From positions 51,467 through 115,466 of IMG/VR virus record IMGVR_UViG_3300021957_003133: a stretch of DNA of 64,000 bases; one strand, 5' to 3'. Shown here in pieces: positions 18,239-61,410 of the stretch. This DNA comes from a virus. The notes under the pieces are model-generated. The model saw only the letters and a program-made list of their open reading frames with translations. It did no database searches and was not told the DNA's origin. The position numbers and the translations under genes were made by a program. The stretch's first letter is position 1; each line of letters opens with the position of its first letter.

Positions 18239-19207
18239 CTACTTCCATTCGTGTTCTTTCCACAGTGAAGGATGTTGTTGATACCATTCATAATACTTTA
18301 CTAGACCCTGTTCAAAATTAACTTGGGGATTGTAACCTAATTCTTTCTTAGCTAGTTCTGAACTAAGTCTACCACGTTTAGGAAATGCTAGGTCACGTTG
18401 ATTTATTTTAATAGTTCCTTTACCTGCGATAGAGATAGCAAGTTCGGCGGCCATTTTCAGTGTCCATAGTTTATCGCTTGAACGTGTTATGTTGTATATT
18501 TTATTTCGAGCTTGTTCACTGGTACTAGCTAGTGCGATTCCTTTTGCTGTGTCTTCTACATAGGTAAAGTCTAAGACTTCATCAGCACCATTTACCTGTA
18601 AGCATTCTCCACGCATTGCTTGAGTTATAAATTTACCAACCACACGATCCTCAACGTCCCATTCACCGTAGACAGCACTTGGACGTACAATGGTATAATC
18701 AAAATGCTTGCTATAATCTTCTACTAACTTTTCTCCAGCATACTTTAAGATAGCATAACTGCCACGAGGGTCGCAGACTGCTGTTTCTGTTACATCATTG
18801 TCGAAGTCACCATAGACCATTGAGCTTGATATATAAACAAATTTTTTAATTGTATATCTCTTACTGGCTTCTAGTAAATTCATTAGGCCCGATGACATCA
18901 CATCACTTGCTAGTACAGGATTTTGATTTGCTATCTTTTGTCTTGGAAAACTTGCTAGGTGTATGACTACATCTGGATTGAATTTCTTAAACACAGTATT
19001 AACAGCAGGGTCTCTGATATCTCCGATGTTTTGTTCACAGTCAACTCGTTTAAGTCTGTGATTGGCAAGATAAACTATTTCCTGCTCTGGAATAATTCCA
19101 TACCCAGTCAAGCTGTCTAAGATCGAACATTGATGTCCTTGTTGTTCAAGTTCTCGGACTACATTGTGTCCTATAAACCCAGCACCACCTGTTAACAGTA
19201 TTCTCAA
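18239..19207 (-). CDS. NAD-dependent epimerase/dehydratase (extended SDR)
   Basis: TGGAGFIG, ISSSMVYG, YAILK (YxxxK), DFTYVED. Confidence 0.92.
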   Translation of the reverse strand: MRILLTGGAGFIGHNVVRELEQQGHQCSILDSLTGYGIIPEQEIVYLANHRLKRVDCEQNIGDIRDPAVNTVFKKFNPDVVIHLASFPRQKIANQNPVLASDVMSSGLMNLLEASKRYTIKKFVYISSSMVYGDFDNDVTETAVCDPRGSYAILKYAGEKLVEDYSKHFDYTIVRPSAVYGEWDVEDRVVGKFITQAMRGECLQVNGADEVLDFTYVEDTAKGIALASTSEQARNKIYNITRSSDKLWTLKMAAELAISIAGKGTIKINQRDLAFPKRGRLSSELAKKELGYNPQVNFEQGLVKYYEWYQQHPSLWKEHEWK

Positions 19208-19705: not shown

Positions 19706-20530
19706 CTATACCGCCATAGGGGCTTTTATTGAATCCATTGGATTGTAGTTGTCTAATTTAAAGTCGGTCATAGTAAATTCGTTAATATTTTTAATCTTAG
19801 TATTCATAATTAATGTCGGAGCAGGTAATGGTTCACGTTGGAGTTGTTCTTTTACCTGCCCTAAATGGTTCAAATATATGTGAGCGTCTCCTAACACGTG
19901 AACGAGCTCGCCTACCCGAAGGTCACACACCTGTGCAATCATGTGTGTGAATAAGGCATAAGATGCTATGTTAAAAGGTACTCCTAAAAACATATCACAG
20001 GATCGCTGATATATTTGACACGACAACTTTTGATCACTGCTAACATAAAATTGTGCAAAGCAATGACATGGCGGCAAAGCCATTTGATCTAATTCGCCTG
20101 GATTCCACGCAGTTAAGATATGTCTGCGGCTTTCAGGATTTGTTTTTATTGATTCTATTAGTTCTTGTAGTTGATCTATAACCAAACGATCAGTTTCCCA
20201 CTCTCTCCATTGCTTGCCATACACAGGACCTAGGTCATTGCTACCAAAGTCTTTGGCATTAGCTGTCCATATAGTTTTCTTTTCTTCGTCTCTTGTACCA
20301 TGTAGTATTTCTGCTAGTCTACGTTCGTCTGTTGATCCTTCTATAAACCATAACAGTTCACTTAAACAACTTTTGAATGCTAATTTTTTTGTAGTTACTG
20401 CTGGGAATGATTTAGATAGATCATAGCGTTGTTGCATGCCAAATACTGACAATGTACCCACACCCGTTCTATCAGTACGAGTTTCACCGTTGTCTAAGAT
20501 ATGTTGTAAAGAATCGAGGTAGGTTTTCAT
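19706..20530 (-). CDS. thyA: Thymidylate synthase
   Basis: DRTGVGT, ELLWF, MALPPCH, QRSCDMFLGVPFNIASY, GDAHIY. Confidence 0.97.
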   Translation of the reverse strand: MKTYLDSLQHILDNGETRTDRTGVGTLSVFGMQQRYDLSKSFPAVTTKKLAFKSCLSELLWFIEGSTDERRLAEILHGTRDEEKKTIWTANAKDFGSNDLGPVYGKQWREWETDRLVIDQLQELIESIKTNPESRRHILTAWNPGELDQMALPPCHCFAQFYVSSDQKLSCQIYQRSCDMFLGVPFNIASYALFTHMIAQVCDLRVGELVHVLGDAHIYLNHLGQVKEQLQREPLPAPTLIMNTKIKNINEFTMTDFKLDNYNPMDSIKAPMAV

Positions 20531-28455: not shown

Positions 28456-28908
28456 TTACCCTCCTTGATATATCGCTGAGTTAGCACCATGCTCTGCACA
28501 CTCTACTGAATGTACCCAGCAACGATCGTTTGTTTGTTCTCTAATTAATTTGTCTGCAAACACAAATGCGTGTTCTGCAAACTTCTCTGCACCAACTCCG
28601 TCCATTACTACAATCTCTGCTAGGTCAAACAGTTCAAGTTCTTTAAATTTTTCTAAGAAAGGGTCATTCTTATCAATCGCTGTCTTATGATCAAAGTGAT
28701 CTTCTAACCATTTCTTAACCTGTTTAAGTCCACCAAAGTCTACTGCCCAGTTTTTATTATCTAGTTCACTACAAGCAAACGTAAATTTAAATTGTAAACT
28801 GTAGCCATGTAATAAATGACAGTGTGAATGATCAGCATTAGGTTGCCTAAAGCAGGCTGATAAACCAATGTTGTGTCCGTACGTTTTAGTTGAATAATAT
28901 GTTGCCAT
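28456..28908 (-). CDS. queD: 6-carboxy-5,6,7,8-tetrahydropterin synthase
   Basis: CHLLHGY, VDFGGLK, FDH, GAEKFA, ECAEHGANSA. Confidence 0.88.
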   Translation of the reverse strand: MATYYSTKTYGHNIGLSACFRQPNADHSHCHLLHGYSLQFKFTFACSELDNKNWAVDFGGLKQVKKWLEDHFDHKTAIDKNDPFLEKFKELELFDLAEIVVMDGVGAEKFAEHAFVFADKLIREQTNDRCWVHSVECAEHGANSAIYQGG

Positions 28909-30932: not shown

Positions 30933-32015
30933 TTATTCCCATCCTATTTTCTCCCAGGGTACGTTTTTATTACCAAAGTGTCCGTAAACACAGTTCTCAC
31001 TATAGTTATTATACTTGAATAAATCAAATCTGTCAATGATTCCTAACGGTGTTAAATCAACATTGGATCTAATAAACTTTTCTATAGAACGATTATGCCC
31101 ATTTGATTCTATGTATATTGATGTAGGTTCTTTAACACCAATAGCATAACTTAACTGTATTTGACACCAGTCAGCCATTTCACTAGCTACTACATTTTTT
31201 GCTAGCCAACGAGACATATAAGCCGCCGAACGATCTACTTTAGTTGGATCCTTACCGCTAAATGCGCCTCCACCGTGTGGTGCCCAACCTCCATAAGTAT
31301 CTACGATAATTTTTCTACCTGTTAATCCCGAATCTCCATCTGGACCACCTACTACAAAGTTACCAGTAGGATTGAGATGCCATACAGTATCATCATCTAC
31401 CAGATGCCCTAACACTGATTGTGCAATCAGTTTTGTTTCTTTTCTAGCCTCTTCACAATCGCCTTCAGTGTGTTGAGTGCTTATTACCACTTGGTCGATA
31501 CGCTGTATTTGATCACCTCTATATTCAACACTGACTTGACTTTTAGCATCTGGCAAGAATATATCATTGTTTTGTCTTGCTTGCTTTAGTCGTTTAAGTA
31601 TCTCATGGCTGTAATAGATAGGTGCAGGCAAGTATGCTTCATTATCTCTATTAGCATATCCAAACATAATACCTTGATCACCTGCCCCAAAATCGTCTGT
31701 ACCTAAGGCAATGTCAGCTGATTGGCTATGTATATGATTGTCTATTTCTAATGTATTCCAATGGAATCCTTCTTGTTCATAACCAATCTTTTTTACTGTA
31801 TCTCTAACTATTTGATTAACATCAACAACATTAAAGTTTTTAACTTCACCAGCTAGTGTTACGTGATTTGTTGCTACTAATGTTTCAATCGCTACTCTTG
31901 TTGTGCGATCACCTTCTGTTAACCCAGCATCTACTAAGGCATCGGATATCTGATCTGCTACTTTATCTGGATGTCCGTCTGATACTGATTCACTTGTAAA
32001 TATATATTTGTCCAA
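30933..32015 (-). CDS. metK: S-adenosylmethionine synthetase
   Basis: FTSESVSDGHPDK, GAGDQG, GLTGRKIIVDTYGG, GGGAFSGKDPTKVDRS. Confidence 0.97.
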   Translation of the reverse strand: MDKYIFTSESVSDGHPDKVADQISDALVDAGLTEGDRTTRVAIETLVATNHVTLAGEVKNFNVVDVNQIVRDTVKKIGYEQEGFHWNTLEIDNHIHSQSADIALGTDDFGAGDQGIMFGYANRDNEAYLPAPIYYSHEILKRLKQARQNNDIFLPDAKSQVSVEYRGDQIQRIDQVVISTQHTEGDCEEARKETKLIAQSVLGHLVDDDTVWHLNPTGNFVVGGPDGDSGLTGRKIIVDTYGGWAPHGGGAFSGKDPTKVDRSAAYMSRWLAKNVVASEMADWCQIQLSYAIGVKEPTSIYIESNGHNRSIEKFIRSNVDLTPLGIIDRFDLFKYNNYSENCVYGHFGNKNVPWEKIGWE

Positions 32016-32879
32016 TTATTTTCCCCAACTGTTTCCCCAAAGATCAACGTGTAATCTTGGGCTATAATTGTAGCCACGTTTCATACACTCGTCTGCTACA
32101 TTAAATTTATTATTTTCATATACTGATACAACACCACCTACAGGCATAATATATACTACACCTTTAAGTCCGGCTTCTCTATATGCTTTGACAGCACGAT
32201 CAACTTCGTCAAAGTCCTTAGGATTTTCAACTACAAACTTGAGATAGGTTGTGCCATACTGCTCATAGTCAGCAACAATCTCAGGCTTAACAGCATCTTC
32301 CCACTTCTCGCCACTAGCACTTAACTTAGCACTAACTGAAAATGTTATATCGCTGTGATAACTATCACCTCGTGCCTTACTCCAAGATTTCATATACTCA
32401 CCAAACTCTGGATGTATCTTTTGTGTGCCGTTAGTTTCAAATGTTATATTAATCAAATCTTTCATCTTGTCATTTTCTAATAACTCAGGAAAAGCACGTT
32501 GCCAGCCTAGTAAAGGTTCGCCGCCTGTAATTACTAAGTGTACATCATTACCGTTAGATTGTACCCATTTATTGTTTGGTGTTAGTTGTGTTAATCTATC
32601 TGCTACTGCTTCTGTCTGTAACATAGGTGACAAATGTTTGAATCTTGGATCCCATGATGCATAACTATCGCACCCTGTATCTACTAAAGGTAATCCTTCG
32701 TATTGATTAAATAGTTCTACTTTAACTTCGTCACGCTCTGTTGACAGTTCGCCTCTATTCATACCAAAGCCGCCACATGTGAAGTTACAACCAAATGTAC
32801 GCAAGAATATACTAGGAACGCCTACAAAACGTCCTTCGCCTTGTGCTGAATAAAATATTTCACTAATTTTAAGTTTCAT
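32016..32879 (-). CDS. queE: 7-carboxy-7-deazaguanine synthase (radical SAM)
   Basis: EIFYSAQGEG, FLRTFGCNFTC..CDS, ITGGEP, ETNGT, SPRLH. Confidence 0.9.
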   Translation of the reverse strand: MKLKISEIFYSAQGEGRFVGVPSIFLRTFGCNFTCGGFGMNRGELSTERDEVKVELFNQYEGLPLVDTGCDSYASWDPRFKHLSPMLQTEAVADRLTQLTPNNKWVQSNGNDVHLVITGGEPLLGWQRAFPELLENDKMKDLINITFETNGTQKIHPEFGEYMKSWSKARGDSYHSDITFSVSAKLSASGEKWEDAVKPEIVADYEQYGTTYLKFVVENPKDFDEVDRAVKAYREAGLKGVVYIMPVGGVVSVYENNKFNVADECMKRGYNYSPRLHVDLWGNSWGK

Positions 32880-37120: not shown

Positions 37121-37855
37121 TTATCTAGGAGCAAATTCTTGTTGTAGTTTAATATTATCCATAAACTCTTTCTTAGTAGCTGGATCGTCTTTGAATGCAC
37201 CTTTGAGTACAGTAGTCTGTGTTAGACTTGAATGTGCCATAACACCTCTATTTTCAACACAACCGTGTGTTGCTTGTACATAAACACCTAGGTGTTCTGC
37301 ACCTGTTGCTTTCTGTATCTCACGTACAATATCGTTTGCAAGTTCTTCTTGTAGTGTACCTCTGCTAGCACACCATTGTGCTATTCTTGTGTACTTTGAT
37401 AAGCCAATAAGTTTATCACTAGCAATAATACCAATGTACGCAGTACCTTTTACAGTCTGATGATGATGTGAACACATGCTTGTGAGTTCACTTCTGACTA
37501 CCAACATACCCTCATAACGATCATCGCTATCATTAGGAAATGCAGTTGCGTCTGGCATAGGTTCATATCTACCTGACATTATTTCATTGATATACATTTT
37601 AGCTAAACGTTTAGCTGTACCTTTTGAGTTTGGATCGTTGTGTCTATCAATCAATAATGAATCAAGTACACCTTCAAACTTGTTTGCGAGTTCATCTATT
37701 AGTATTTCTTTCTCACCATGATGAATGTGTTTTGAAATATTGTCACCTGCCCAATATCTGTCACCTGCTTTTTTAATTCTTTCTCTAATATCTTTACTGA
37801 CTGGTTGAGTACGTTGCTCAAGCTCTGACCAATCTATTCTGTTTTCTACTGACAT
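37121..37855 (-). CDS. folE: GTP cyclohydrolase I
   Basis: TAKRLAKMY, SMCSHHH, IGLSKYTR, LQEEL, HGCVENRGV. Confidence 0.95.
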   Translation of the reverse strand: MSVENRIDWSELEQRTQPVSKDIRERIKKAGDRYWAGDNISKHIHHGEKEILIDELANKFEGVLDSLLIDRHNDPNSKGTAKRLAKMYINEIMSGRYEPMPDATAFPNDSDDRYEGMLVVRSELTSMCSHHHQTVKGTAYIGIIASDKLIGLSKYTRIAQWCASRGTLQEELANDIVREIQKATGAEHLGVYVQATHGCVENRGVMAHSSLTQTTVLKGAFKDDPATKKEFMDNIKLQQEFAPR

Positions 37856-37894: not shown

Positions 37895-37961
37895 TTTATT
37901 ATTACATACTATTATATAGGCCTAGTATAGTAAAGTCAAATCTTTTTGGTAGTATTACTTA

Positions 37962-39842
37962 TTAGTTGGTGATTTCGATTGAAAGTTTTTCTAATTTAGA
38001 TCTAGCTGTAGGTATTTCTGTAAATGTGTTTACTAACTCATGTCGTTCGTGTAAGAGGGAAAATGATCCACTACCTTTCCAATATTTCTTAATAAATTCT
38101 TTTTTAGCTAGTTTCTGAGTAATTTGATACTTTACCTCTTTCTGAACAAATGTAACTATATCAAATTGACTAGTAAATTCAATACTACTATTTAAAGAGA
38201 CATCAAATATATAGTTTTTTTGTAACTCTTGCACAGCATCTGCAGTTTGATTATTGCATTTTGTAAGTTTTCTAAAGGCTTCTATAGCCAATTGCATAAT
38301 CTTATTTTTTAGTTTAAAGAAAGGCTGGTAACTAAGGTAATCAAGTCTTCCGGTATCCCTATACTTAGGATCTTTTATCCTACCAGTATTAAATACCTCA
38401 TATAACAACGACTTAATAAGATTCAGTTGTACACTTGCATCAGGATCAGCATACATAAGTCTTTCCATCTCTAAATAGAAATCTAGCATAGATACTTTGA
38501 ACTGTTTATTTGCAATTTGGCTAATAATATAGCTGTATCCGGTACTGTGTATATGATTTATTATTTGACTGAACAAATAACAATCAATTATTTCATCTGA
38601 TGACATCGTTGATGTTCCGGTTACAATTTCACTATTTTCTAATATTTGAAAGTCACTTTCAGAGGACGGAGCAACGGAATTAAGATCCGGAGTCAGCACC
38701 GATGTAATTTTATATTTTTCTCTGTAAACAACATTGGCCATCTCAGTATTTGGTAGTATGCTACACATAAATACATCAAATATTTTATGCTTGCCTTCGT
38801 CTAATCTGCCGGTCATTGCCTCATACCAAGACTCTTTAGTTTCCAATGGTAGGCCAACGATGTATTCCTGCTCATGAGATATATTATTTTCATCAGCAAA
38901 TTTGATTAAATTTGCAATATCTTTTTCTGGAAGATTTTTTCTCTTGATAGCTTTAAGTGTATCCACATTATCTGATTGTAGGCTTATATTAAATCCTGTG
39001 TCTTGATTCAAGAGCAGAACTATGTCGTCCATCTCTTTGTTATATTTTTTAGCATATGACACCCAAATTGATTCTACATACCCATGATCAATTCCTTCTC
39101 TAATAATCTTTGCGGCGGCGAGGTCTCTTTGTTTGAAGATACCAAAATTAGCATCAGCAACATTAACATGTATTAATGTCTTTTTATTTTTGGTCCAATC
39201 AATATCATCCTGTAGTCGGTCTAATCCCATGTTATACACTTTACTAGCTGTTAGACTGCCCCAATCACAGAAAGAACAAGAGTACGGACAACCACGATTG
39301 GTTTCTATCGTCGCGGCCCAATAAAGTTCGGGGTTGTCATCTAGTAGTTGATTAAATACTCCACTGCCATATGGACTAGGTAATATAGTAAGATCATTGA
39401 TTCGTTCTCTTTGGTATATTTTCTGCAGATTTTTATTTATGAAATCTTCAAGTAATTGCTTAAAATTAATTTCACCTTCTGCAATGATTATTGAATCAAT
39501 ATGCGTGTGTTGGTCTATGGTTTGTTTATTGATATGCGGACCACCAAATACTATCTTACAATTAGGGTATCTTAGTTTAATTTTTTTGCTTAGTGCTATA
39601 TTATAATTAAAATTCCAAACGTAACAACTAAAACCGACCATATCAGGGTCGTCTAATCTATCAGTTAGTTCGTCGATTGGCTCTTTGACCGCTAGTATTT
39701 CTTTAAGATTAATGTGATTAGTTATTTCTTTAAATTGAATTACATATGCCCACAAACATCCAATACTATAGGGTAGCCAGGCAAGAAGTCTGCCGTCAAC
39801 ACCTTCAAGATTGCTAGGCTGGATAAGATATATATTCTTCAT
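37962..39842 (-). CDS. Cobalamin-binding radical SAM protein
   Basis: LPYSIG, GFSCYVWN, VFGGP, ETNRGCPYSCSFCDWG, DANFG, GLPLET. Confidence 0.9.
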   Translation of the reverse strand: MKNIYLIQPSNLEGVDGRLLAWLPYSIGCLWAYVIQFKEITNHINLKEILAVKEPIDELTDRLDDPDMVGFSCYVWNFNYNIALSKKIKLRYPNCKIVFGGPHINKQTIDQHTHIDSIIIAEGEINFKQLLEDFINKNLQKIYQRERINDLTILPSPYGSGVFNQLLDDNPELYWAATIETNRGCPYSCSFCDWGSLTASKVYNMGLDRLQDDIDWTKNKKTLIHVNVADANFGIFKQRDLAAAKIIREGIDHGYVESIWVSYAKKYNKEMDDIVLLLNQDTGFNISLQSDNVDTLKAIKRKNLPEKDIANLIKFADENNISHEQEYIVGLPLETKESWYEAMTGRLDEGKHKIFDVFMCSILPNTEMANVVYREKYKITSVLTPDLNSVAPSSESDFQILENSEIVTGTSTMSSDEIIDCYLFSQIINHIHSTGYSYIISQIANKQFKVSMLDFYLEMERLMYADPDASVQLNLIKSLLYEVFNTGRIKDPKYRDTGRLDYLSYQPFFKLKNKIMQLAIEAFRKLTKCNNQTADAVQELQKNYIFDVSLNSSIEFTSQFDIVTFVQKEVKYQITQKLAKKEFIKKYWKGSGSFSLLHERHELVNTFTEIPTARSKLEKLSIEITN

Positions 39843-39866
39843 GATATAGTATTTATTGGTTAGTGA

Positions 39867-40442
39867 TTAACCTAAAATAATAGGTTCGTGCTGATCTAAG
39901 AAAGCAGATACTTCCTTATAACTGCGGCGAAACTTAAATTGTAGTGCTTCTCTCGAACCGTTACATTGAATCTCATGAGGTAAGCTTGGGTCTATTAACC
40001 AAGCAGTGTTTACTATAGACGGGTATGAGTAAGGAACATCATTGTCCCAGCTGGTAGTAACAGCATCGGGGTCTTCACAGCTAATAACGAAATTTATATT
40101 GCATACGTCCGATGAGTCTTTGTAATCCGTATGTTTTTTTACATTTTGTAAAGATTTATGATAAAGTATAATAGGATCAAAGTCTGCAAAAAGATCTATT
40201 GCTTGTTTGGCCCACGGAAGTTTAGAAAGCAATAGATCACCACTTAAAAATCCCCAATTTTTTGAATGGATGCCGGTATGATCAACAGCTAAGGTAGTGT
40301 TCCCAAAAAGATATCGTTTTGCATAATCAGTATCATAATCAACATCGGGCGTACAATGTTTACTTTTTTCATATATGATATCATGTATTTTTCTTACATC
40401 AGCCCAATCTTGATGTATGGTTATGTCTACTGATCTTATCAT
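39867..40442 (-). CDS. Cupin/2OG-Fe(II) oxygenase-like protein
   Basis: KHTD (HxD), INF, distal PHEI and R.ALQF; start re-assigned to 40442. Confidence 0.5.
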   Translation of the reverse strand: MIRSVDITIHQDWADVRKIHDIIYEKSKHCTPDVDYDTDYAKRYLFGNTTLAVDHTGIHSKNWGFLSGDLLLSKLPWAKQAIDLFADFDPIILYHKSLQNVKKHTDYKDSSDVCNINFVISCEDPDAVTTSWDNDVPYSYPSIVNTAWLIDPSLPHEIQCNGSREALQFKFRRSYKEVSAFLDQHEPIILG

Positions 40443-40573
40443 ATTAGTACAAATATCACTAGGAATACTGCGACTACATACAAAGCCCATTTCTCAGGTC
40501 CTTCTATGTTACCGCGTTTTTTAGATTCGTTACGTGCTTGTCTCCAAACGTCTTTCCAATCGATCTTCTTCAT
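40439..40573 (-). CDS. Small membrane protein, 44 aa (not in ORF track)
   Basis: MKKIDWKDVWRQARNESKKRGNIEGPEKWALYVVAVFLVIFVLI; ATAAATA 7 nt upstream. Confidence 0.6.
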   Translation of the reverse strand: MKKIDWKDVWRQARNESKKRGNIEGPEKWALYVVAVFLVIFVLI

Positions 40574-40591
40574 AGTAAAGTATTTATGAAC

Positions 40592-41179
40592 TTACCAGAT
40601 ACTAAGTTTTCTTAAATCAGGATATTGTTTGAATTTATATTGTTCTTGATGAGAGCCTAGTAGTTCTAGCCCTCTTTTAGCTTCTTCAGGTGTAGGACGA
40701 TAATGATATCCCATTTGGAATGTTTTTTGTTTGGACCAAGGAGTTATTGATAAGTCTCTACCATCGTAACACATAAGCTTTAATTTTTTGTGAAGCTCTT
40801 GATCATCTAGTAGGATAGCACCACCACGCCCAATAGTCATTGGTTTATCATAACCAAAACTCAAACACATTATCTGCCCAGCTTTGTACATATTTTCATA
40901 TAAAGCTCTAGCACTATCCCATATGTTTGTATGCCAAAAGTAATACATACCATTCCAGTTGATGTTATCGTTAAACTCATATTCAACATCAATCTTTTTA
41001 AGCATCATTGGTATTGAAATATAAGTGTGGGGAGTAAGCTGAGTTCTTTTGTAACCTGTTGCTAGAAATGATAGCTCAAGTGCGTGTGTACAACAATCAG
41101 TCATTACTGCGTACTTGGCACCCGTGTATTCTGCTAGTGCTTGTTCAAATTCTGTTATGAGATCAAATGGATTACTCAA
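40592..41179 (-). CDS. Short DegT/DnrJ/EryC1-like PLP-dependent aminotransferase
   Basis: FEQALAEYTGAKYAV..CCTHAL, DSA, CLSFGYDKP..GRGGAIL; only 195 aa. Confidence 0.8.
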   Translation of the reverse strand: MSNPFDLITEFEQALAEYTGAKYAVMTDCCTHALELSFLATGYKRTQLTPHTYISIPMMLKKIDVEYEFNDNINWNGMYYFWHTNIWDSARALYENMYKAGQIMCLSFGYDKPMTIGRGGAILLDDQELHKKLKLMCYDGRDLSITPWSKQKTFQMGYHYRPTPEEAKRGLELLGSHQEQYKFKQYPDLRKLSIW

Positions 41180-42260
41180 TGTTGTCTAGCAATTCTTGTG
41201 CTGAAAAGAATTTTTCAGTAAGACTGTGTGCCTGTGCTTTAACTAGATGTATATTAGTATCATAGTTTTCTACAAACCAACGAACAGTTTCTACGATAAA
41301 CGTTTTGTTCTTTTGATAGCTGTCCCAACTTTCAGTCCATTCGCTTGGATACTTAAACTTATTAGTATACATTTCACTATAACTTAATCTATCAGGAACA
41401 AATGGTACACTATCGACTACTGCTCCTTCGTAACAGCTGATACCTAGTGTTTCCTGCAAGTTAGCACTAAAAACCATTTTACTTTCGCCAAGTAATTTAT
41501 GATATTCATCTTTACTCAATGACTGCTCTTGACATATTACCCAGTCAAATTGTGGCAAACTTTTAGCTAAGTCTTTAAATATATCTACCTGTTTCTCTGG
41601 TGCTATACGATGTGGAAATAATACAAGATCTCGTTTAGCAAGACCTTTGTATTCGTTGAGTGTATCACTCATATACTCCATAGGCCAACCTGTACGCACA
41701 ATCTTTTTCTGATACTTCCATATAGCTAGTTGCCCATCTCTTTCTTTAGCAAGATCCATACCTAACAAGTTCTCGCAGAACATATCAATATGAAAGTCTG
41801 TGGCAAAGTAGTTATGATCAATTGATTCAAAGAAAGCGTGCTCAGTGTGTCTTACCCAATTAGCATCACCTATCAGTCTACCTAAGAAGTCCTGCGGGTC
41901 ATATGATCCAGCGTGCCATAGTGCATGTATAGTTACTTTTATTCCAAGTAACTCACTCATATACTTTAGGTTAATGATACCAGGATGCCAAGCGTCAGTA
42001 AAGATAACGTGATCCCCACTGTGTACTTTACCACTAGTGAACAAGCGACTGAGTTCCTCAACTTGTCTAGCCTTGTATATGTTAGTACCACCAAAGTTAA
42101 GAAAAGCGCCAGGAGTAGTGGCATTGGGAATATCACTAGGTCCTTCAATAATTGTAACATTGTGTCCGTTGTCCTTTAATAGTTTAGGTACGTGAGTTTT
42201 CCATTGTCCAGTGTATCTGGATTCAACTGCTTCTAGATCAACTAAGAACACATTGCTCAC
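41172..42260 (-). CDS. Glycosyltransferase (GT-B, GT4-like)
   Basis: FPHRIAPEKQ, ETLGISCYEG, PDRLSYSE. Confidence 0.75.
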   Translation of the reverse strand: MSNVFLVDLEAVESRYTGQWKTHVPKLLKDNGHNVTIIEGPSDIPNATTPGAFLNFGGTNIYKARQVEELSRLFTSGKVHSGDHVIFTDAWHPGIINLKYMSELLGIKVTIHALWHAGSYDPQDFLGRLIGDANWVRHTEHAFFESIDHNYFATDFHIDMFCENLLGMDLAKERDGQLAIWKYQKKIVRTGWPMEYMSDTLNEYKGLAKRDLVLFPHRIAPEKQVDIFKDLAKSLPQFDWVICQEQSLSKDEYHKLLGESKMVFSANLQETLGISCYEGAVVDSVPFVPDRLSYSEMYTNKFKYPSEWTESWDSYQKNKTFIVETVRWFVENYDTNIHLVKAQAHSLTEKFFSAQELLDNIE

Positions 42261-42688
42261 AGTGTTATTCTCTGTGAAGGTCTTGTAGTATTGTATTCAG
42301 TTTCACTACCATTTTCGTTATCTTCTGCAACTGAAATTTTAACATCTCTAGCTGGATACTTTTCAGCAATCTTCAAGTAAAGTGCATCTGATATCATTTC
42401 ACAGCTTTGATAGTCAAGTTCTAATTCACCACCTGTTTGATATAAACTTTCACACCAGCGTTTGAACTGTATAAACTCTAGATCTCTGTCATCGTGGAAT
42501 ACTTGTATCCAAACACGGAAATGGAATATGTGTCTGTGAGGATGACCTAAGAAACTAACGTCTGCTAGTTTAGGATCATCAAGTGCGGCTGGATAATAGT
42601 GAATACCTTCACGCTGGAAAGTAACCCATATCATCTTTCTAGCATCAGCCATGATTTTGTCTACACGTTCTCTTTGTTCTTGGTTCAT
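42257..42688 (-). CDS. QueD-like T-fold protein, DpdL-like (candidate CDG decarboxylase)
   Basis: EGIH..P, LGHPHRHIF (LxxxHRHxF), RDLEFI, SCEM, VAEDNENG. Confidence 0.65.
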   Translation of the reverse strand: MNQEQRERVDKIMADARKMIWVTFQREGIHYYPAALDDPKLADVSFLGHPHRHIFHFRVWIQVFHDDRDLEFIQFKRWCESLYQTGGELELDYQSCEMISDALYLKIAEKYPARDVKISVAEDNENGSETEYNTTRPSQRITL

Positions 42689-42882
42689 AGTTCGTCTAAT
42701 GCCTCTAACATGTCATGTGCATGTGCAATTTTTTCTAATTCTTTCTCTACTGTTTCTGAATAATCAATATGCTCTGCAACACCTTGTGGATTATTTATAA
42801 ACAGTGTGATATTAGTTTTGCTAATTTCAATTTGATTCTCATACTTTGCTCTAAGATTATTAAGTATCACTGATGTTGCCAT
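42685..42882 (-). CDS. Small hypothetical protein
   Basis: NPQGVAEH motif; GGAGG RBS. Confidence 0.6.
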   Translation of the reverse strand: MATSVILNNLRAKYENQIEISKTNITLFINNPQGVAEHIDYSETVEKELEKIAHAHDMLEALDEL

Positions 42883-43406
42883 TATTCTTCCTCCTTAATG
42901 ATTTCGTCTTTTCCATATTCTGACCATATAGTCATTCGATCGTAACTTTTTAATTTGTCTAATGAATGACACCACACACCGTCATTGGTTGCATTAAAGT
43001 CTATGTCATCTATCTTAATAGTAGTGTTATCGTTATACTGCTCAATGTTAGGTAGTTTAACTGATATCTGTGTTATGAAACCTTCAAACTCATTGAGTTG
43101 TTCTAACCATTTACACTTCTTTTGAACGTGCTTAATGTCTAAGTCCAATGTTACTTTATAACCTAAACGTAAGACATGTTCAATTTGACGTACCCACTCA
43201 CCAATGTTCTCTCCATCAAATGATTGGTTGGCTCCGAAGTATACATGATCGCATTCATGTTTTGTGGCGATATCGGTAATTTGCTCCGGAGCCATAACTC
43301 CAACAACAAACAGTGTGCGTAAATTAAATGCAGGCGTAACTTCTACTTCATCACCCACAAAATATTTTACGTCTGTTGCACTACCTGTTGCGTAATCTCT
43401 TTTCAT
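42882..43406 (-). CDS. Hypothetical protein within the deazaguanine locus
   Basis: Start re-assigned to MKRDY, 6 nt after TTGACT-N17-TATAAT (43413-43441); HVYFGANQSF, KIDDIDFNATNDGVWCH. Confidence 0.6.
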   Translation of the reverse strand: MKRDYATGSATDVKYFVGDEVEVTPAFNLRTLFVVGVMAPEQITDIATKHECDHVYFGANQSFDGENIGEWVRQIEHVLRLGYKVTLDLDIKHVQKKCKWLEQLNEFEGFITQISVKLPNIEQYNDNTTIKIDDIDFNATNDGVWCHSLDKLKSYDRMTIWSEYGKDEIIKEEE

Positions 43407-43437
43407 AATAGTATTATACAGTATATTATGTTCAAAG

Positions 43438-43785
43438 TCAATACTTCTGTTTCTCAGCAATAACACCACGTACACCGCCTCTAGGATCTGCACAATCGCC
43501 GTCTGTGCGTGGAATCATGTGTATATGAGGATACATAACAGTCTGTCCTGCTGACTCGCCTATGTTTTGTCCTATGTTAAATCCAGTGCAATATTCTTTT
43601 TGAAATAGATCTATACCCCATTCGTATGCGGCCAAGTATGTGATCATAAAACAGTTAGGAGTATCTTGCTTAGGAACAAACAGCAAGTGTCCTTTGGTTA
43701 CAGGATACTTGTCTTCAAACACTAGATAATCTTTATTCTCTACTAAAGGTGTTGATTCGTACCAGGGAGTGTCTTCTAGTTTCAT
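43438..43785 (-). CDS. HIT-family nucleotide hydrolase
   Basis: DKYPVTKGHLLFVP, GFNIGQN.G..AGQTV.YPHIHMIPR. Confidence 0.92.
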   Translation of the reverse strand: MKLEDTPWYESTPLVENKDYLVFEDKYPVTKGHLLFVPKQDTPNCFMITYLAAYEWGIDLFQKEYCTGFNIGQNIGESAGQTVMYPHIHMIPRTDGDCADPRGGVRGVIAEKQKY

Positions 43786-46451: not shown

Positions 46452-47387
46452 TTAATTTGGCGACTTTAATACTACCTTTCCTAGAGCTTGATGTAACTTT
46501 GATGTAGTTAGTTTACCAGGTTTTTTAATCTCTGCAAAACTACCAAATTCATCATAATCTGTTAACGCCACAATCTCGTATCCTATTTTTTCAACTAGTT
46601 GTTTAAGTTTGTTTGCGTTATAGTAACTAATTTTTTGATCTTCGCAGTGATCTATTAGATTACTAGTTATGCAGTCGTTAAACCCAAACATCAAAACTCC
46701 TCCTGGTCTTAACAAATCAAATATCCTAGTAATTGCAAGTTCTACATAATCACTATGCAAATATTTAAATGCCCACAAACAAAACACTAGACTAAATTGT
46801 CCTTGCGGAAAACTTCGGAAATTTAAATTTCTAAGTTCATACGATCTTAATCTATTCTGGTATCCACGTGGGTACTCTTCTACGATATCATTCAATGCAC
46901 TTAAAGAAGTTCCTGTAATATACAACGGATCCATGGTTGTCATCGGTTTAATCCATTCAGCATCATTGGGGAATATTTGCAATCCTGGATACCGCCAGTT
47001 ACTACCGTAGAGTCTGACTTTATTTTTTATGTCTTCTTTAACTTTATCTGGTATTTGTAATTTCAATAAATGTTGATATACGATATCAACCGTAAAGATT
47101 TCTTTATATTCTTCAAACATTTCGTCTGACCATTTGTTAATATCATTATCAACTTCGACAATGAGCTCTTGTAATTGATCAGTAACTTTATCGTATTCTT
47201 TTGCTAATGTTTCACACTGCTGATGCATTGATAATAAGCTGTCTGAGTATTGGTTGAAGGTTTCTCTTGTAGTTACTAGTGTTCTATCTAGTAATCCGAT
47301 GTTATCAGATAGAGGAGTACGAGTTAATCTACTGTTGATTAAATCTAGTAAAAGTTTTCGATAGAGACATAAGTCTCTCAGTTTCAT
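46452..47387 (-). CDS. Coiled-coil + degenerate class I SAM-methyltransferase-like protein
   Basis: FPQGQFSLVF and LLRPGGVLMF motifs; glycine-rich motif I degenerate; start re-assigned to MKLRDL. Confidence 0.55.
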   Translation of the reverse strand: MKLRDLCLYRKLLLDLINSRLTRTPLSDNIGLLDRTLVTTRETFNQYSDSLLSMHQQCETLAKEYDKVTDQLQELIVEVDNDINKWSDEMFEEYKEIFTVDIVYQHLLKLQIPDKVKEDIKNKVRLYGSNWRYPGLQIFPNDAEWIKPMTTMDPLYITGTSLSALNDIVEEYPRGYQNRLRSYELRNLNFRSFPQGQFSLVFCLWAFKYLHSDYVELAITRIFDLLRPGGVLMFGFNDCITSNLIDHCEDQKISYYNANKLKQLVEKIGYEIVALTDYDEFGSFAEIKKPGKLTTSKLHQALGKVVLKSPN

Positions 47388-47400
47388 AGTCGGGTTCGTA

Positions 47401-50067
47401 TTATTCAAATGTAAACAGGTCGTCAAATGTTGTTGAAATCTGTGTATTTTCACTTATCTTCCAGTTCAATACACCTAATAAGTTTTCTACTTTTTGATCT
47501 ACGATACCAGTCTCCATGGCGGCATCATCAAATGGAAGTTCTTTAAACCAATCGGGTATATGTGTTTCATCAATTGGATATCCAACACTGGTATATCCTA
47601 AAGGATTGTCTTTGAGTTTACACACAATAGTTTTCATTCCATCAACTATGCTCATTGAATAGTTGTCACTGTGCATACGTCTTAGATTATTCCAGTTCAT
47701 TGCGGCTCTAACGTGTCCAGGCATATTTGCTTTACCTAGTCGTTCTTCTTCTTTACTATATTTTGTTAGGTTGTTGACACGCTTAGGAGTTCCTTTTTCC
47801 CAAGCTGGGCGTTCTGTAAACAGTAGCTTAAACTCTCTTACTTTGGCAATTAGCCGTTCTCTATCAGCACCAGTCAGTGTTTCTAACAGTACTTCACTCA
47901 AGAAGTCCTGTACTACCTTAGGTGTATCTGAACGCTTTAAGTCCAAGCCCATAGCTTTTACTTTGCCAGGTGAACCGTGACTGTCTAATCTGTTACCTTC
48001 CATATCATAGATAAGCACAGCATAACGTTTCTTCTTGATAAACAGTCCTTTCAATGCTACTAGTTCTCTACCACCTCTAATTAGCTCGCCCTGTTTGCGT
48101 GTAACGTGGAATGCTTTTTCACAGAATGCTGGAAAGCTGGCATTGACTTGATCTGAAATTGAATCATATAGTTGAACTGCGATGTCTTTGTTCCATTCCA
48201 TCTTGCCTGCTTCAACATCATCTTTGACAGCGGGCCACGCAGTAAAATAACAACTATCAGTATCACCATACACTATACTTTCTCCAACGTGATCATATTC
48301 GCCCATGATACATTCATTAATATAAGCATCCATATGGCGTGCAATAACACGTCCAGTCAGTGTTGTTGATTGACCAATACGATGATCAAAGAATCTACAA
48401 CCTGGATTAAGCAGTGCACCATACAAACTATTTAGGTTAATCTTCTTAACTAGCTGTCGCTTATCCCAGAATGCTGTGTCTTCTTTGTTTTCAGTTTTGA
48501 TGCTTTCACGCATCTTACTTTGCATTTCCTTACGTTCTGCGTACCATCGTTCCAATAGTCCTGGAATGATACCTTTTGTTTCGTTGTTAAAGATGGTTCC
48601 GTTAGCACTCAGTATCCAAGGTTTGTTACTATCAAATATTAGCCTCCATACATCCGCGGCACTTAATACATCACTTTCACCGTTCTTCCAGTCGATAGTT
48701 ATTTCAGTGCCTGGCTCACCATTCATAACAGCAGTGTATTCCATACTACCAAACACATTCTCCCAAGCATCAGCAAATGACTTGCCTTCTTGTTGTTTAG
48801 TTTTAATATGATGTTCAGTCATAGTAGGTCTTAGCTGTCCTATAATAGTTTCTGGACCCATATTCAAAGCACGAATAGCCGACGGATAAAGTGAATTAAT
48901 ATCAATAGCACCTATGTAGTCATGCATACCTTTCTTAGGAAACGCCACATAAGCACCTGCGGCCTGTGTAGTGCCTTCATCGCCAAATTTTCTATTAGGA
49001 ACTATCATACCTAACTGATGTGCTTCGTTGATAATAGCTTGTTCAGTAACAGCAACAGCACCCATTGTTGTTTGTAGTAGTACTGTGTTGTCATGTGCTA
49101 ATTCATTAGCAAGATCAATAAATCTTAATTTCTTGTCTAATTTATCTAATAGAGCAGTATCTTGTCTATTATACTCAATGAACTTTTCAAAATCTTTATT
49201 ATATAGTTGATCTAGGGTACCTTCATATGGAGTTTTTGTTTCTGCTAGTTCAAACTCAGCAATAGCATCCAACGAGTAACTATGTCTTTCTTCGTATGTA
49301 TATTTTCTATACAGTTGCATATAATCTAAATGCACACGACCAATCAAATCAAATGTTAAGTTGCTGGCTCCAAAGCGTTCAAACTCACGTTTCTTAGGAA
49401 ATTGATTCCATAAACAAAAACGTCTGGTATCATCTTTTGACAGCACACGATTAGTTCTCATTACCATGTAGGGAATATCAAATCCTTCTGAGTTCCACCC
49501 ACTCAATATATCAGCATCTTCAATTATATCTAAGAAAGTTTTTATAAGATCTTCTTCACGTTCCATTAAAAAGCAATTATCATACTTGCTAGCAATTTCT
49601 TCGGCAGTTTCCCAACTCATTGACTTAGGTGGGATCACCATAGTAACTAGTTTTTCCATCCAATCAAGATATACTGATACTGCTGTAATTGGATTAAAAG
49701 GATCATCGGGCTTACTAAATCCTCTTACTGGATCAAAGTCAACCTCAATATCAAAAAATGCTGTTTGTAGTTTAGGTGACGGCTTGCCTAGATAATTATT
49801 CTCTAAGCAACGGAATACAGGATTAATATCACTTTCCCAAGTCTGCTTGCCTGAGTTTACTTTTAATTCTCTGTGAAACTCTTTTGAATTTTTAGTTTGG
49901 AATCGATCTACAGGAGTACCATATATGGTACGGTGTTTACCCTTAGGAGCATCATAATAAAATACATACTCTGCTGGGTATTCTACATATTCTCTTTGGC
50001 CATTGTTGCGTTCAACAATGTATATACGATCTTTTTGCCTGTCAAACAGGGCATCTACGTAACTCAT
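47401..50067 (-). CDS. Family B DNA polymerase (T4 gp43-like)
   Basis: Exo DIE, GWNSEGFD; Pol DINSLYPS, KINLNSLYG, YGDTDS, KKRY. Confidence 0.97.
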   Translation of the reverse strand: MSYVDALFDRQKDRIYIVERNNGQREYVEYPAEYVFYYDAPKGKHRTIYGTPVDRFQTKNSKEFHRELKVNSGKQTWESDINPVFRCLENNYLGKPSPKLQTAFFDIEVDFDPVRGFSKPDDPFNPITAVSVYLDWMEKLVTMVIPPKSMSWETAEEIASKYDNCFLMEREEDLIKTFLDIIEDADILSGWNSEGFDIPYMVMRTNRVLSKDDTRRFCLWNQFPKKREFERFGASNLTFDLIGRVHLDYMQLYRKYTYEERHSYSLDAIAEFELAETKTPYEGTLDQLYNKDFEKFIEYNRQDTALLDKLDKKLRFIDLANELAHDNTVLLQTTMGAVAVTEQAIINEAHQLGMIVPNRKFGDEGTTQAAGAYVAFPKKGMHDYIGAIDINSLYPSAIRALNMGPETIIGQLRPTMTEHHIKTKQQEGKSFADAWENVFGSMEYTAVMNGEPGTEITIDWKNGESDVLSAADVWRLIFDSNKPWILSANGTIFNNETKGIIPGLLERWYAERKEMQSKMRESIKTENKEDTAFWDKRQLVKKINLNSLYGALLNPGCRFFDHRIGQSTTLTGRVIARHMDAYINECIMGEYDHVGESIVYGDTDSCYFTAWPAVKDDVEAGKMEWNKDIAVQLYDSISDQVNASFPAFCEKAFHVTRKQGELIRGGRELVALKGLFIKKKRYAVLIYDMEGNRLDSHGSPGKVKAMGLDLKRSDTPKVVQDFLSEVLLETLTGADRERLIAKVREFKLLFTERPAWEKGTPKRVNNLTKYSKEEERLGKANMPGHVRAAMNWNNLRRMHSDNYSMSIVDGMKTIVCKLKDNPLGYTSVGYPIDETHIPDWFKELPFDDAAMETGIVDQKVENLLGVLNWKISENTQISTTFDDLFTFE

Positions 50068-52793: not shown

Positions 52794-52803
52794 GATATAG
52801 TAT

Positions 52804-53370
52804 TTATTTCAGACCAATCTTCATAAAACGATTGTATTGGGTACCTTCCACACATTCTAAAGGCATTTGTTTAAGGCAGTAAGTTTCAACTAACGGATAA
52901 GCTTCATCAAATACTGTCAGTGTTTGATATAAATTTTCTTTGTTCCCCCGTTGTTGGTCTCTACCTTGTAATGCTACTATGGTTCCATTAGGGATATTGT
53001 CAAACCATTCTTGACCTTCGATATCATTGGTGCTGGTATTAATTACTAACGAATCGTTGTCTTTGAATTTGGTATTATTGCAGTCCTGCGTAACTGGCAC
53101 GACTTTTTCGCAACAAGCGTTTTGTTTGGCATATTCGGTATTTTTAGGGTCAATATCTATCAAAAATAGCTTATTACATACAATATTTCGGTCTAATATG
53201 TACTGTGCTATACTTCCGTACCAACTACCTAAAGCATATACATTGTCAAATTTATCATGCCCTAATCGTTTAAGAGTCCGACATAACCATAGCTTACCTA
53301 GATTGAGATCTTGACTCATGCTACCGGCTGGGGTGTTCGGAGAACTTTCAAAGAGTTCAATAGCTATCAT
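52804..53370 (-). CDS. Tagged SAM-dependent methyltransferase-like protein
   Basis: MIAIELFE; GKLWL, ALGSWYG, IDID, VINTS, RFMKIG. Confidence 0.6.
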   Translation of the reverse strand: MIAIELFESSPNTPAGSMSQDLNLGKLWLCRTLKRLGHDKFDNVYALGSWYGSIAQYILDRNIVCNKLFLIDIDPKNTEYAKQNACCEKVVPVTQDCNNTKFKDNDSLVINTSTNDIEGQEWFDNIPNGTIVALQGRDQQRGNKENLYQTLTVFDEAYPLVETYCLKQMPLECVEGTQYNRFMKIGLK

Positions 53371-61386: not shown

Positions 61387-61410
61387 AACTAGTATTTATC
61401 GTGGTTTGAA

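Follow-up and report, generated by a model that had tools for sequence, protein, structure and literature searches.

We describe a putative pathway for the glycosylation of a 7-deazapurine, encoded in a window of 64,000 nucleotides that forms the right-hand 64 kb of the IMG/VR record IMGVR_UViG_3300021957_003133 (115,466 bp; CheckV completeness ~33%), a fragment of an uncultured aquatic giant phage. An operon of this window encodes, as shown by homology, a retaining GT4-type glycosyltransferase (GT) that is predicted to use a nucleotide sugar, next to the gene for DpdL, the proposed decarboxylase of a 7-deazaguanine DNA modification pathway. We estimate at roughly 55% the probability that this enzyme attaches a sugar to the product of the deazapurine pathway, most likely in DNA. 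A wider reading, to which we give somewhat less than even odds, is that guanine is replaced by a glycosylated 7-deazapurine in a large group of giant phages, abundant worldwide in water and soil, as well as in the cultured phages PA5oct, ACP17, Phosso, BUDD and PhiXhv-12, and that an exchangeable cassette gives the sugar a different form in different phages. To this cassette we would assign genes for dehydrogenases, dehydratases, DegT-like proteins, radical S-adenosylmethionine (SAM) enzymes, cobalamin methylases and 2-oxoglutarate (2OG) oxygenases. The genes concerned all lie on the minus strand, at the positions given in an initial annotation of this DNA; that layout was correct for every gene it named, and left unmentioned a gene for a 65-aa protein inside the operon (Table 1).

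The assignment of the 362-aa GT is based on its predicted structure and its conserved residues. With an alignment of 112 sequences, the AlphaFold2 (AF2) model reached a predicted local distance difference test (pLDDT) score of 96.9, compared with only 37 for a fold from the single sequence. The model consists of two Rossmann-like domains (GT-B), and its residues 1-362 align with BshA, MshA, sucrose-phosphate synthase and PimA at Z scores of 21-26. Best among the structural matches are sucrose-phosphate synthase (Z 26.3), BshA (Z 25) and MshA (Z 24.8), with a Foldseek E-value (E) of 1e-10. The EX7E motif reads E270-TLGISCY-E278, and in the 112 sequences E278 and E140 are invariant while E270 is conserved in at least 90%. 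The window GT itself has no match to PF00534 at E 0.1 or better, but 71 of the 112 family members do (best 4.5e-9), and the family profile likewise matches GT group-1 structures (8xsg, 2e-5). The family comprises more than 8000 homologues in 1153 clusters at 50% identity, and is present in 464 IMG/VR contigs.

The operon runs from the gene of a 174-aa protein through those of the 65-aa protein, DpdL and the GT to that of a short DegT-like protein, with successive overlaps of 1, 4, 4 and 8 nt and with the junction sequences CTGTGAGC and ATTGAGTAA. The two overlaps noticed in the initial annotation, between DpdL and GT and between GT and the short DegT-like gene, are those of 4 nt (GTGA), by which the GT is translationally coupled to DpdL, and of 8 nt (TTGAGTAA), and the protein of 174 aa that it had placed ahead of these three is indeed the first of the operon. 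Because the -10 hexamer of the promoter-like sequence in front of this first gene ends only 7 nt upstream of its ATG (position 43406), the mRNA of the operon may be leaderless. Behind the operon follow a 44-aa open reading frame (ORF) and the gene of a 207-aa protein, then that of a 626-aa cobalamin-dependent radical SAM enzyme, and finally folE.

DpdL reads FLGHPHRHIFHF (L-GHP-HRH-I-F), which fits LxxxHRHxF, the motif that defines DpdL and replaces the CxxxHGH motif of QueD (Cui, Hutinet et al., PMC10516641). Its identity to the Cellulophaga phage phiST protein CGPG_00067 is 33% (E 3.5e-14; tblastn E 5e-7), and 57-62% to the proteins of ACP17, Phosso and RHph_I1_18. Decarboxylase activity of DpdL could not be shown in published assays, and dpdL together with dpdA, either of phiST or of ACP17, gave no 2'-deoxy-7-deazaguanosine (dDG) in E. 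coli, for which the authors suggested that other enzymes may be needed (PMC10516641). The genomic context of DpdL in the window is FolE, QueD, QueE and DpdA without QueC. QueC was not detected anywhere in the 115-kb fragment, an absence that is provisional given that the record is only one third complete. We regard the module as a QueC-less 7-deazaguanine DNA modification system, in which FolE, QueD and QueE should yield 7-carboxy-7-deazaguanine (CDG). The 523-aa DpdA3-like protein has no match to the Pfam family of tRNA-guanine transglycosylases (TGT), but its catalytic Asp motifs DSGGfQ (D114) and FDC (D306) align with D102 and D280 of TGT, and all 41 matches of its family profile are TGT structures, the best at a marginal E of 0.03. 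To CGPG_00065 of phiST it is 21% identical in a multiple alignment, and the hidden Markov model of its family has no match to that protein at E 1e-3.

In the scheme that we propose, DpdL would decarboxylate CDG and the DpdA3-like transglycosylase would swap the base into DNA. The GT would put a sugar on the deazapurine, most likely after its installation in DNA by DpdA3, in the way T4 treats hydroxymethylcytosine, and the genes behind the GT would form a tailoring cassette, variable among phages, that sets which sugar is used. In the window, the short DegT-like protein, the possible 2OG oxygenase, the TokK-like methylase and a distant 4,6-dehydratase-like gene could together provide an amino-, deoxy- or C-methylated hexose.

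The co-occurrence of the GT with dpd genes, which had been named beforehand as the check on which the proposal could fail, came out in its favour. In 83 loci (80 viral loci and three cultured phages), DpdL stands alongside the GT in 78 and DpdA3 in 67; further companions of the GT are the 174-aa protein (70 loci), FolE (65) and QueE (59). In four of the five loci that lack DpdL, the GT lies near a contig end. The usual order is polymerase, clamp, DpdA3, 174-aa protein, DpdL, GT, a variable slot and FolE. The 174-aa protein is thus a regular member of the module, and also occurs in ACP17. Judged from its homologues, its true start is an internal ATG; E20, E22, K131, D133, D134, N141 and W145 are invariant, and no match was obtained in Pfam (with 21 members), in a profile search of the PDB or in the Atlas.

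The adjacency of DpdL and GT is retained in GT clades that are only 29% and 38% identical to the window GT (L090-L097). Similarly, the GT lies 0-3 kb from DpdL in Acidovorax phage ACP17, the PA5oct group, Sinorhizobium phage Phosso, the Xanthomonas phages BUDD and X1, and Burkholderia phage BCSR5, where it shares 23-50% identity with that of the window. These deeper, diverged cases matter more than the raw counts. Xanthomonas phage PhiXhv-12, which is devoid of DpdL, possesses a run of Gat-QueC, a PIG-L deacetylase, a distant GT and a GFO/IDH/MocA oxidoreductase, while FolE and QueD are located elsewhere in its genome. The Gat-QueC gene is annotated there as glutamine-fructose-6-phosphate aminotransferase (GlmS), and corresponds to a glutamine amidotransferase (GATase) plus QueC (E 2.3e-49). 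This run suggests a decoration derived from N-acetylglucosamine (GlcNAc) in a phage of the dG+/preQ0 type, and since its GT shares the run with Gat-QueC, the GT family is tied to two branches of the 7-deazaguanine pathway. Two distant GT queries gave no match in viral contigs. One uncultured clade carries two GT paralogues in the module, one beside DpdL and the other beside FolE, which hints at two sugars or two linkages. By contrast, DpdL occurs without the GT in phiST, RHph_I1_18, Ahp1 and others, and the profiles of the GT and of the 174-aa protein detected nothing in the DpdL loci of these three phages. Because such DpdL phages exist, the GT is to be seen as an addition to the pathway and not as a requirement.

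Several points weigh against a sugar on the DNA base, and some of them concern the genomic evidence. Most of the 83 loci share a polymerase that is 56-92% identical to that of the window; the counts are therefore not independent, and as the phages are for the most part related, inheritance accounts for much of the synteny. PhiST has DpdL but lacks the GT and produces plain dDG, so that the GT is unneeded there (PMC10516641), and among the longer proteins none was seen in which the GT is fused to a dpd or que protein. The short DegT-like protein is mainly limited to one clade, and it also has homologues in the glycan clusters of two phages, Flavobacterium phage immuto_2-6A and cyanophage S-SCSM2R, where the neighbouring GTs are unrelated; the DNA of immuto_2-6A has been reported as fdPreQ1 plus normal dA, dC and dT, with no sugar mentioned. 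The shared polymerase, the two glycan clusters and the DNA of immuto_2-6A would suit an alternative in which the GT and its sugar cassette act on a target unrelated to deazaguanine, for instance the host envelope, virion proteins or another DNA base, and are co-located with dpd genes through block inheritance of replication and nucleotide genes. We consider this improbable, as the adjacency survives where the polymerase is just 25% identical (ACP17) and the GT just 23-32%, the distant GT of PhiXhv-12 shares an operon with Gat-QueC in another part of the genome, and the GT of the window is translationally coupled to DpdL. Moreover, neither the GT profile nor that of the 174-aa protein found anything in the glycan clusters of immuto_2-6A or S-SCSM2R.

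Other points against a glycosylated DNA base concern the enzyme and its acceptor. The GT is acidic (isoelectric point, pI, 5.5), and it is no nearer to the known DNA glucosyltransferases than to other GT-B enzymes, the 'DNA alpha-GT' of a cyanophage ranking only 25th with a template modelling (TM) score of 0.53. Neither nucleoside chemistry nor mass spectrometry has been published for any phage that bears this GT, and no report of glycosylated 7-deazaguanine in DNA was found in the full-text literature searched. 7-Deazaguanine has no hydroxyl and no side-chain amine to take a sugar; because it is devoid of a hydroxyl, an unusual glycosyl chemistry may be involved, for example an N- or C-glycoside on the pyrrolopyrimidine.

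These properties bear on the possibility that the GT acts before DNA is reached, on a free 7-deazapurine base or nucleotide or on a pterin, and that its product is a soluble or activated compound or a pterin glycoside, such as the one made by the cyanobacterial enzyme BGluT, with the DNA base itself free of sugar. The GT gene is indeed situated between the gene of a T-fold protein (PTPS/QueD-like) and folE, the structural matches include tetrahydrobiopterin glucosyltransferases (9v0l, Z 21.6; 5zes, Z 21.1), and the best matches BshA and MshA take small acceptors. Conserved residues of the N-terminal domain are aromatic and acidic instead of basic, in line with the low pI, and a phosphoribosyltransferase (PRTase), which belongs to the module of the window as well as to those of PA5oct and 11 other loci, indicates that base-to-nucleotide chemistry occurs in it. 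We nevertheless give this alternative little weight. BGluT ranked below ~30 other GT-B enzymes and is not a specific relative, no gene resembling sepiapterin reductase was seen, and a pterin glycoside would be of no obvious use to the phage. The charge of the GT is uninformative on DNA binding, given that DpdA3 and the polymerase of the same phage are equally acidic. Finally, DpdL lacks the catalytic Cys of PTPS and QueD (PMC10516641).

A target in tRNA is most improbable. In that case the TGT-like enzyme and the GT would together produce a queuosine-like base with a sugar in the tRNA of the phage or its host, comparable to the action of QTMAN in animals, and TGT enzymes are ancestrally tRNA enzymes. 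Yet none of the 112 GT-family members matches PF12038, the N-terminal family of QTMAN, at E 0.01 or better. Moreover, the DNA of DpdA3 phages is fully substituted (PMC10516641), and PA5oct DNA resists restriction enzymes with G-containing sites, although its modified base was not determined (PMC12191111). ACP17 has been used solely in the failed heterologous test (PMC10516641).

If a sugar is indeed transferred to the base, its nature may be set by the genes located between GT and folE. The content of this slot differs among phages: in ~12 loci it is empty, with the GT running into folE, in ~22 it contains the short DegT-like gene alone, and elsewhere it holds other sets. Genes resembling dehydrogenases of nucleoside diphosphate (NDP) sugars are present in nine loci and 4,6-dehydratase/epimerase genes in L066, L081 and L023, and relatives add a cytidylyltransferase-like gene and radical SAM/SPASM, 2OG-Fe(II) oxygenase, PRTase and cobalamin radical SAM genes. 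Amino-deoxy-sugar pathways (DesI/DesII, perosamine-type routes) typically comprise a dehydratase, a DegT-type protein and a methylase, and by analogy with these the slot can be read as a sugar-tailoring cassette. A tailored sugar is a reasonable expectation, because nucleotide-sugar enzymes fill the slot in related phages. The suggestion of the initial annotation that the base is further glycosylated, aminated or methylated is partly supported by the company that the GT keeps with dpd genes and by the nucleotide-sugar genes of the slot, and weakened by the want of an obvious acceptor on 7-deazaguanine and by the narrow distribution of the short DegT-like protein.

It is also conceivable, though we think it rather unlikely, that only the GT takes part in the base pathway, and that the short DegT-like protein, the 207-aa protein and the cobalamin (B12) radical SAM enzyme are independent accessory genes (morons) in a permissive slot. 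The loci with an empty slot agree with this, as do features of these genes. The short DegT-like protein is too short for a canonical aminotransferase: its alignment with solved sugar aminotransferases is restricted to residues 5-53 and 97-177, and it is without ~45 residues of the large domain and the entire C-terminal domain of the full two-domain architecture of ~360-390 aa. Its Schiff-base lysine K112 (SFGYDK) is, however, invariant in 20 sequences and aligned with the catalytic Lys of solved enzymes, and GxGG is kept. The protein is present in 32 of the 83 loci, and since its homologues are always 191-199 aa long (31 loci), it represents a stable short form and not a recent truncation. Catalysis by this form is doubtful to judge from its sequence, and it may be a general partner of phage glycosyltransferases rather than an enzyme of the DNA pathway. 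Half-size DegT-like proteins of 195-214 aa are encoded directly after the unrelated GTs of immuto_2-6A and S-SCSM2R, and in S-SCSM2R a radical SAM enzyme comes next.

The 207-aa protein also suits such an accessory role, being nearly unique to its lineage, with just two close homologues among 5.8 billion proteins and a partial relative in one of the 83 loci. Its description as a cupin oxygenase was not confirmed: there was no Pfam, PHROG or NCBIfam match and no similarity to the 2OG oxygenases in the slots of L028 and L041, and what points to a possible 2OG-Fe(II) oxygenase is an HxD...H motif and a language-model feature lead in the Atlas (0.93-0.94). Both this gene and that of the B12 enzyme, moreover, have promoter-like motifs of their own, as the initial annotation had remarked of ATAAATA. 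The sequence ATAAATAC is found 9-10 nt upstream of the ATG of the B12 gene and of the 44-aa ORF that overlaps the 207-aa gene, and its four minus-strand copies (39849-39856, 40580-40587, 52800-52807 and 61392-61399) all sit 6-10 nt before an ATG. By count, however, it is not enriched in the window, with 5 seen versus 6.3 expected. Its placement recalls the T4 late promoter TATAAATA.

The B12 enzyme itself speaks against such a role. The presence of a cobalamin radical SAM gene before folE was confirmed by its domains (B12-binding PF02310, 1.2e-10; Radical_SAM PF04055, 4.2e-7), its cluster motif CPYSCSFC and its closest solved relatives, TokK (7kdx, E 7.6e-59) and CysS (E 3.3e-37). Against the NCBIfam model KedN5 it scores 2e-52 and 178 bits, far under the cut-off of 700, and is hence a relative and not a member of that subfamily; judged by these similarities it is likely to be a methyltransferase acting on an sp3 carbon. 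Three lineages of such enzymes occur in the slot, at 65-70%, 37% and 23-27% identity to that of the window, and they are confined to DegT-positive loci (8 of 32, versus none of the 51 DegT-negative ones, a count inflated by close duplicates). This pattern favours repeated recruitment over chance insertion. That the last two genes could be unrelated insertions, as had been surmised, therefore still suits the nearly unique 207-aa gene, but less so the B12 gene with its three divergent forms. The short DegT-like gene, for its part, overlaps the stop codon of the GT and is the next gene after the GT in the majority of DegT-positive loci whose sequence extends to folE, and the pairing of DegT-type with radical SAM enzymes is familiar from amino-sugar pathways such as DesI/DesII. 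Together with the clear nucleotide-sugar enzymes that the slot houses elsewhere, this argues against mere accessory genes and for a cassette that tailors the sugar.

Table 1. Coordinates of the features discussed. Positions without a prefix refer to the window, those with a prefix to loci of other phages.
Feature	Position	Strand	Basis or remark
Retaining GT4-type GT-B glycosyltransferase, 362 aa	41172-42260	-	AF2 model, EX7E motif
DpdL, QueD-like T-fold, proposed CDG decarboxylase	42257-42688	-	phrog_17812 at 1.7e-34
65-aa protein, clade-limited	42685-42882	-	phrog_1811; in 7/83 loci
174-aa protein, first operon gene, fold unassigned	42882-43406	-	conserved companion of DpdA3, DpdL and GT
Sigma-70-like promoter, TTGACT-17-TATAAT	43413-43441	-	11/12 consensus matches; consensus match only
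Half-size DegT/DnrJ/EryC1-like protein, 195 aa	40592-41179	-	PF01041, 63.5 bits vs cut-off 19.8
44-aa ORF	40439-40573	-	starts right after ATAAATAC; overlaps start of 207-aa gene in another frame
207-aa protein, possible 2OG-Fe(II) oxygenase, nearly unique to lineage	39867-40490	-	H120-x-D122...H172
Cobalamin-dependent radical SAM enzyme, 626 aa, TokK/CysS/KedN5 class	37962-39842	-	own ATAAATAC
FolE (GTP cyclohydrolase I), first pathway step	37121-37855	-	own sigma-70-like promoter at 37911-37939
S8 peptidase, secreted, 1115 aa	33709-37056	-	long charged repeat stalk, beta-rich C-terminus
SnoaL-like protein, 108 aa	33381-33707	-	
PRTase, 153 aa	32927-33388	-	
QueE-like radical SAM enzyme (CDG synthase)	32016-32879	-	
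SAM synthetase (MetK)	30933-32015	-	full three-domain form
QueD (PTPS family)	28456-28908	-	
Thymidylate synthase, canonical-looking	19706-20530		
NDP-hexose 4,6-dehydratase/epimerase-like short-chain dehydrogenase/reductase (SDR)	18239-19207	-	best NCBIfam dTDP-glucose 4,6-dehydratase, 1.9e-38, under its cut-off
HIT-family nucleotide hydrolase/transferase, optional neighbour	43438-43785	-	Pfam; in 10/83 loci
DpdA3-like DNA-guanine transglycosylase, 523 aa	44085-45656	-	35% identity to PA5oct gp168
Methyltransferase-like protein	46452-47453		
GT paralogue pairs	L091:2772-3956 + L091:8001-9095; L090:28-639 + L090:7986-9095		
PhiXhv-12 run	L098:4669-8755 = PV764601.1 120910-124996		
Half-size DegT-like proteins after unrelated GTs	L085:10001-10645; L086:7998-8585		immuto_2-6A, S-SCSM2R

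Upstream of the operon, the window encodes the HIT protein, the DpdA3-like protein, a clamp-like protein, the methyltransferase-like protein and a family-B polymerase; downstream of folE follow the PRTase, QueE, the SAM synthetase and QueD. The PRTase gene adjoins that of QueE, as it also does in PA5oct (gp163), and in the 11 other loci a PRTase lies inside the slot between GT and folE; a possible role would be to return guanine freed from DNA by DpdA3 to GMP/GTP for FolE. MetK, directly downstream of QueE, fits a high SAM demand of QueE, the B12 radical SAM enzyme and the methyltransferase-like gene. The genes of the SnoaL-like protein and of the S8 peptidase are found between folE and the PRTase/QueE genes. 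The SDR gene, which adjoins that of thymidylate synthase 22 kb from the GT, is a possible source of a 4-keto-6-deoxy sugar. Megablast with the region as query returned nothing from the phage collection.

To our knowledge, the known sugar-bearing DNA bases are all pyrimidines (glucosyl- and arabinosyl-hydroxymethylcytosine, base J), and the eight known phage 7-deazaguanines bear only small groups. A glycosylated deazapurine, if real, would add a chemically new class to the known DNA bases and be the first sugar-bearing purine analogue in DNA. It would also explain PA5oct-like phages, which are seen by modification-dependent nucleases and whose base is yet unidentified, as well as the failure to rebuild the DpdL pathway in E. 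coli, and it would bear on the choice of therapy phages, on the evasion of restriction and CRISPR, on sequencing artefacts and on the supply of DNA-labelling enzymes. As the GT family is very common and several of its bearers are in culture, the idea is directly testable.

Among known systems, that of phiST, in which FolE, QueD, QueE, DpdL and DpdA3 lead to dDG (PMC10516641), is one of the closest. It has the enzyme set of the window, with no QueC found in either, the LxxxHRHxF motif of DpdL is common to them, and the putative transglycosylase of the window aligns with the catalytic Asp motifs of TGT enzymes, to which that of phiST is also similar. PhiST differs in being devoid of the GT, the 174-aa protein and the sugar genes, its DpdL is only 33% identical, and its DpdA3 has 259 aa versus 523 aa in the phage of the window. 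The alpha- and beta-glucosyltransferases of T4, which act on 5-hydroxymethylcytosine, are likewise GT-B enzymes of a phage with a nucleotide sugar as donor, their genes too lie among those of DNA metabolism, and the proposed logic is similar in that the base would be modified first and the sugar added after replication. However, there is no specific kinship in sequence or structure, and the sugar would in the present case be received by a purine analogue that offers no hydroxymethyl group.

BshA and MshA, the retaining GT4 enzymes of bacillithiol and mycothiol synthesis, are top structural matches with an EX7E-type C-terminal domain, and the position of the PhiXhv-12 GT beside a PIG-L deacetylase resembles the pairing of BshA with BshB and of MshA with MshB. 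Their identity to the GT is, however, 11-13%, and their acceptors are malate or inositol phosphate, with no link to nucleic acids. Like the enzyme proposed here, QTMAN/GTDC1 is of GT4 type and glycosylates a 7-deazaguanine nucleoside, but its acceptor is the cyclopentenediol side chain that queuosine carries in tRNA. Similarly, the sequential C-methyltransferases TokK and CysS share the B12-binding domain and the CxxxCxxC cluster with the 626-aa enzyme, whereas their substrates are a carbapenem and a methoxy-benzoate. Finally, the DegT/DnrJ/EryC1 aminotransferases (perosamine synthetase, PseC, DesI) resemble the short protein of the window in their SFxxxK lysine, in GxGG and in a Pfam score above cut-off, and differ from it in length, with ~370 aa compared with its 195.

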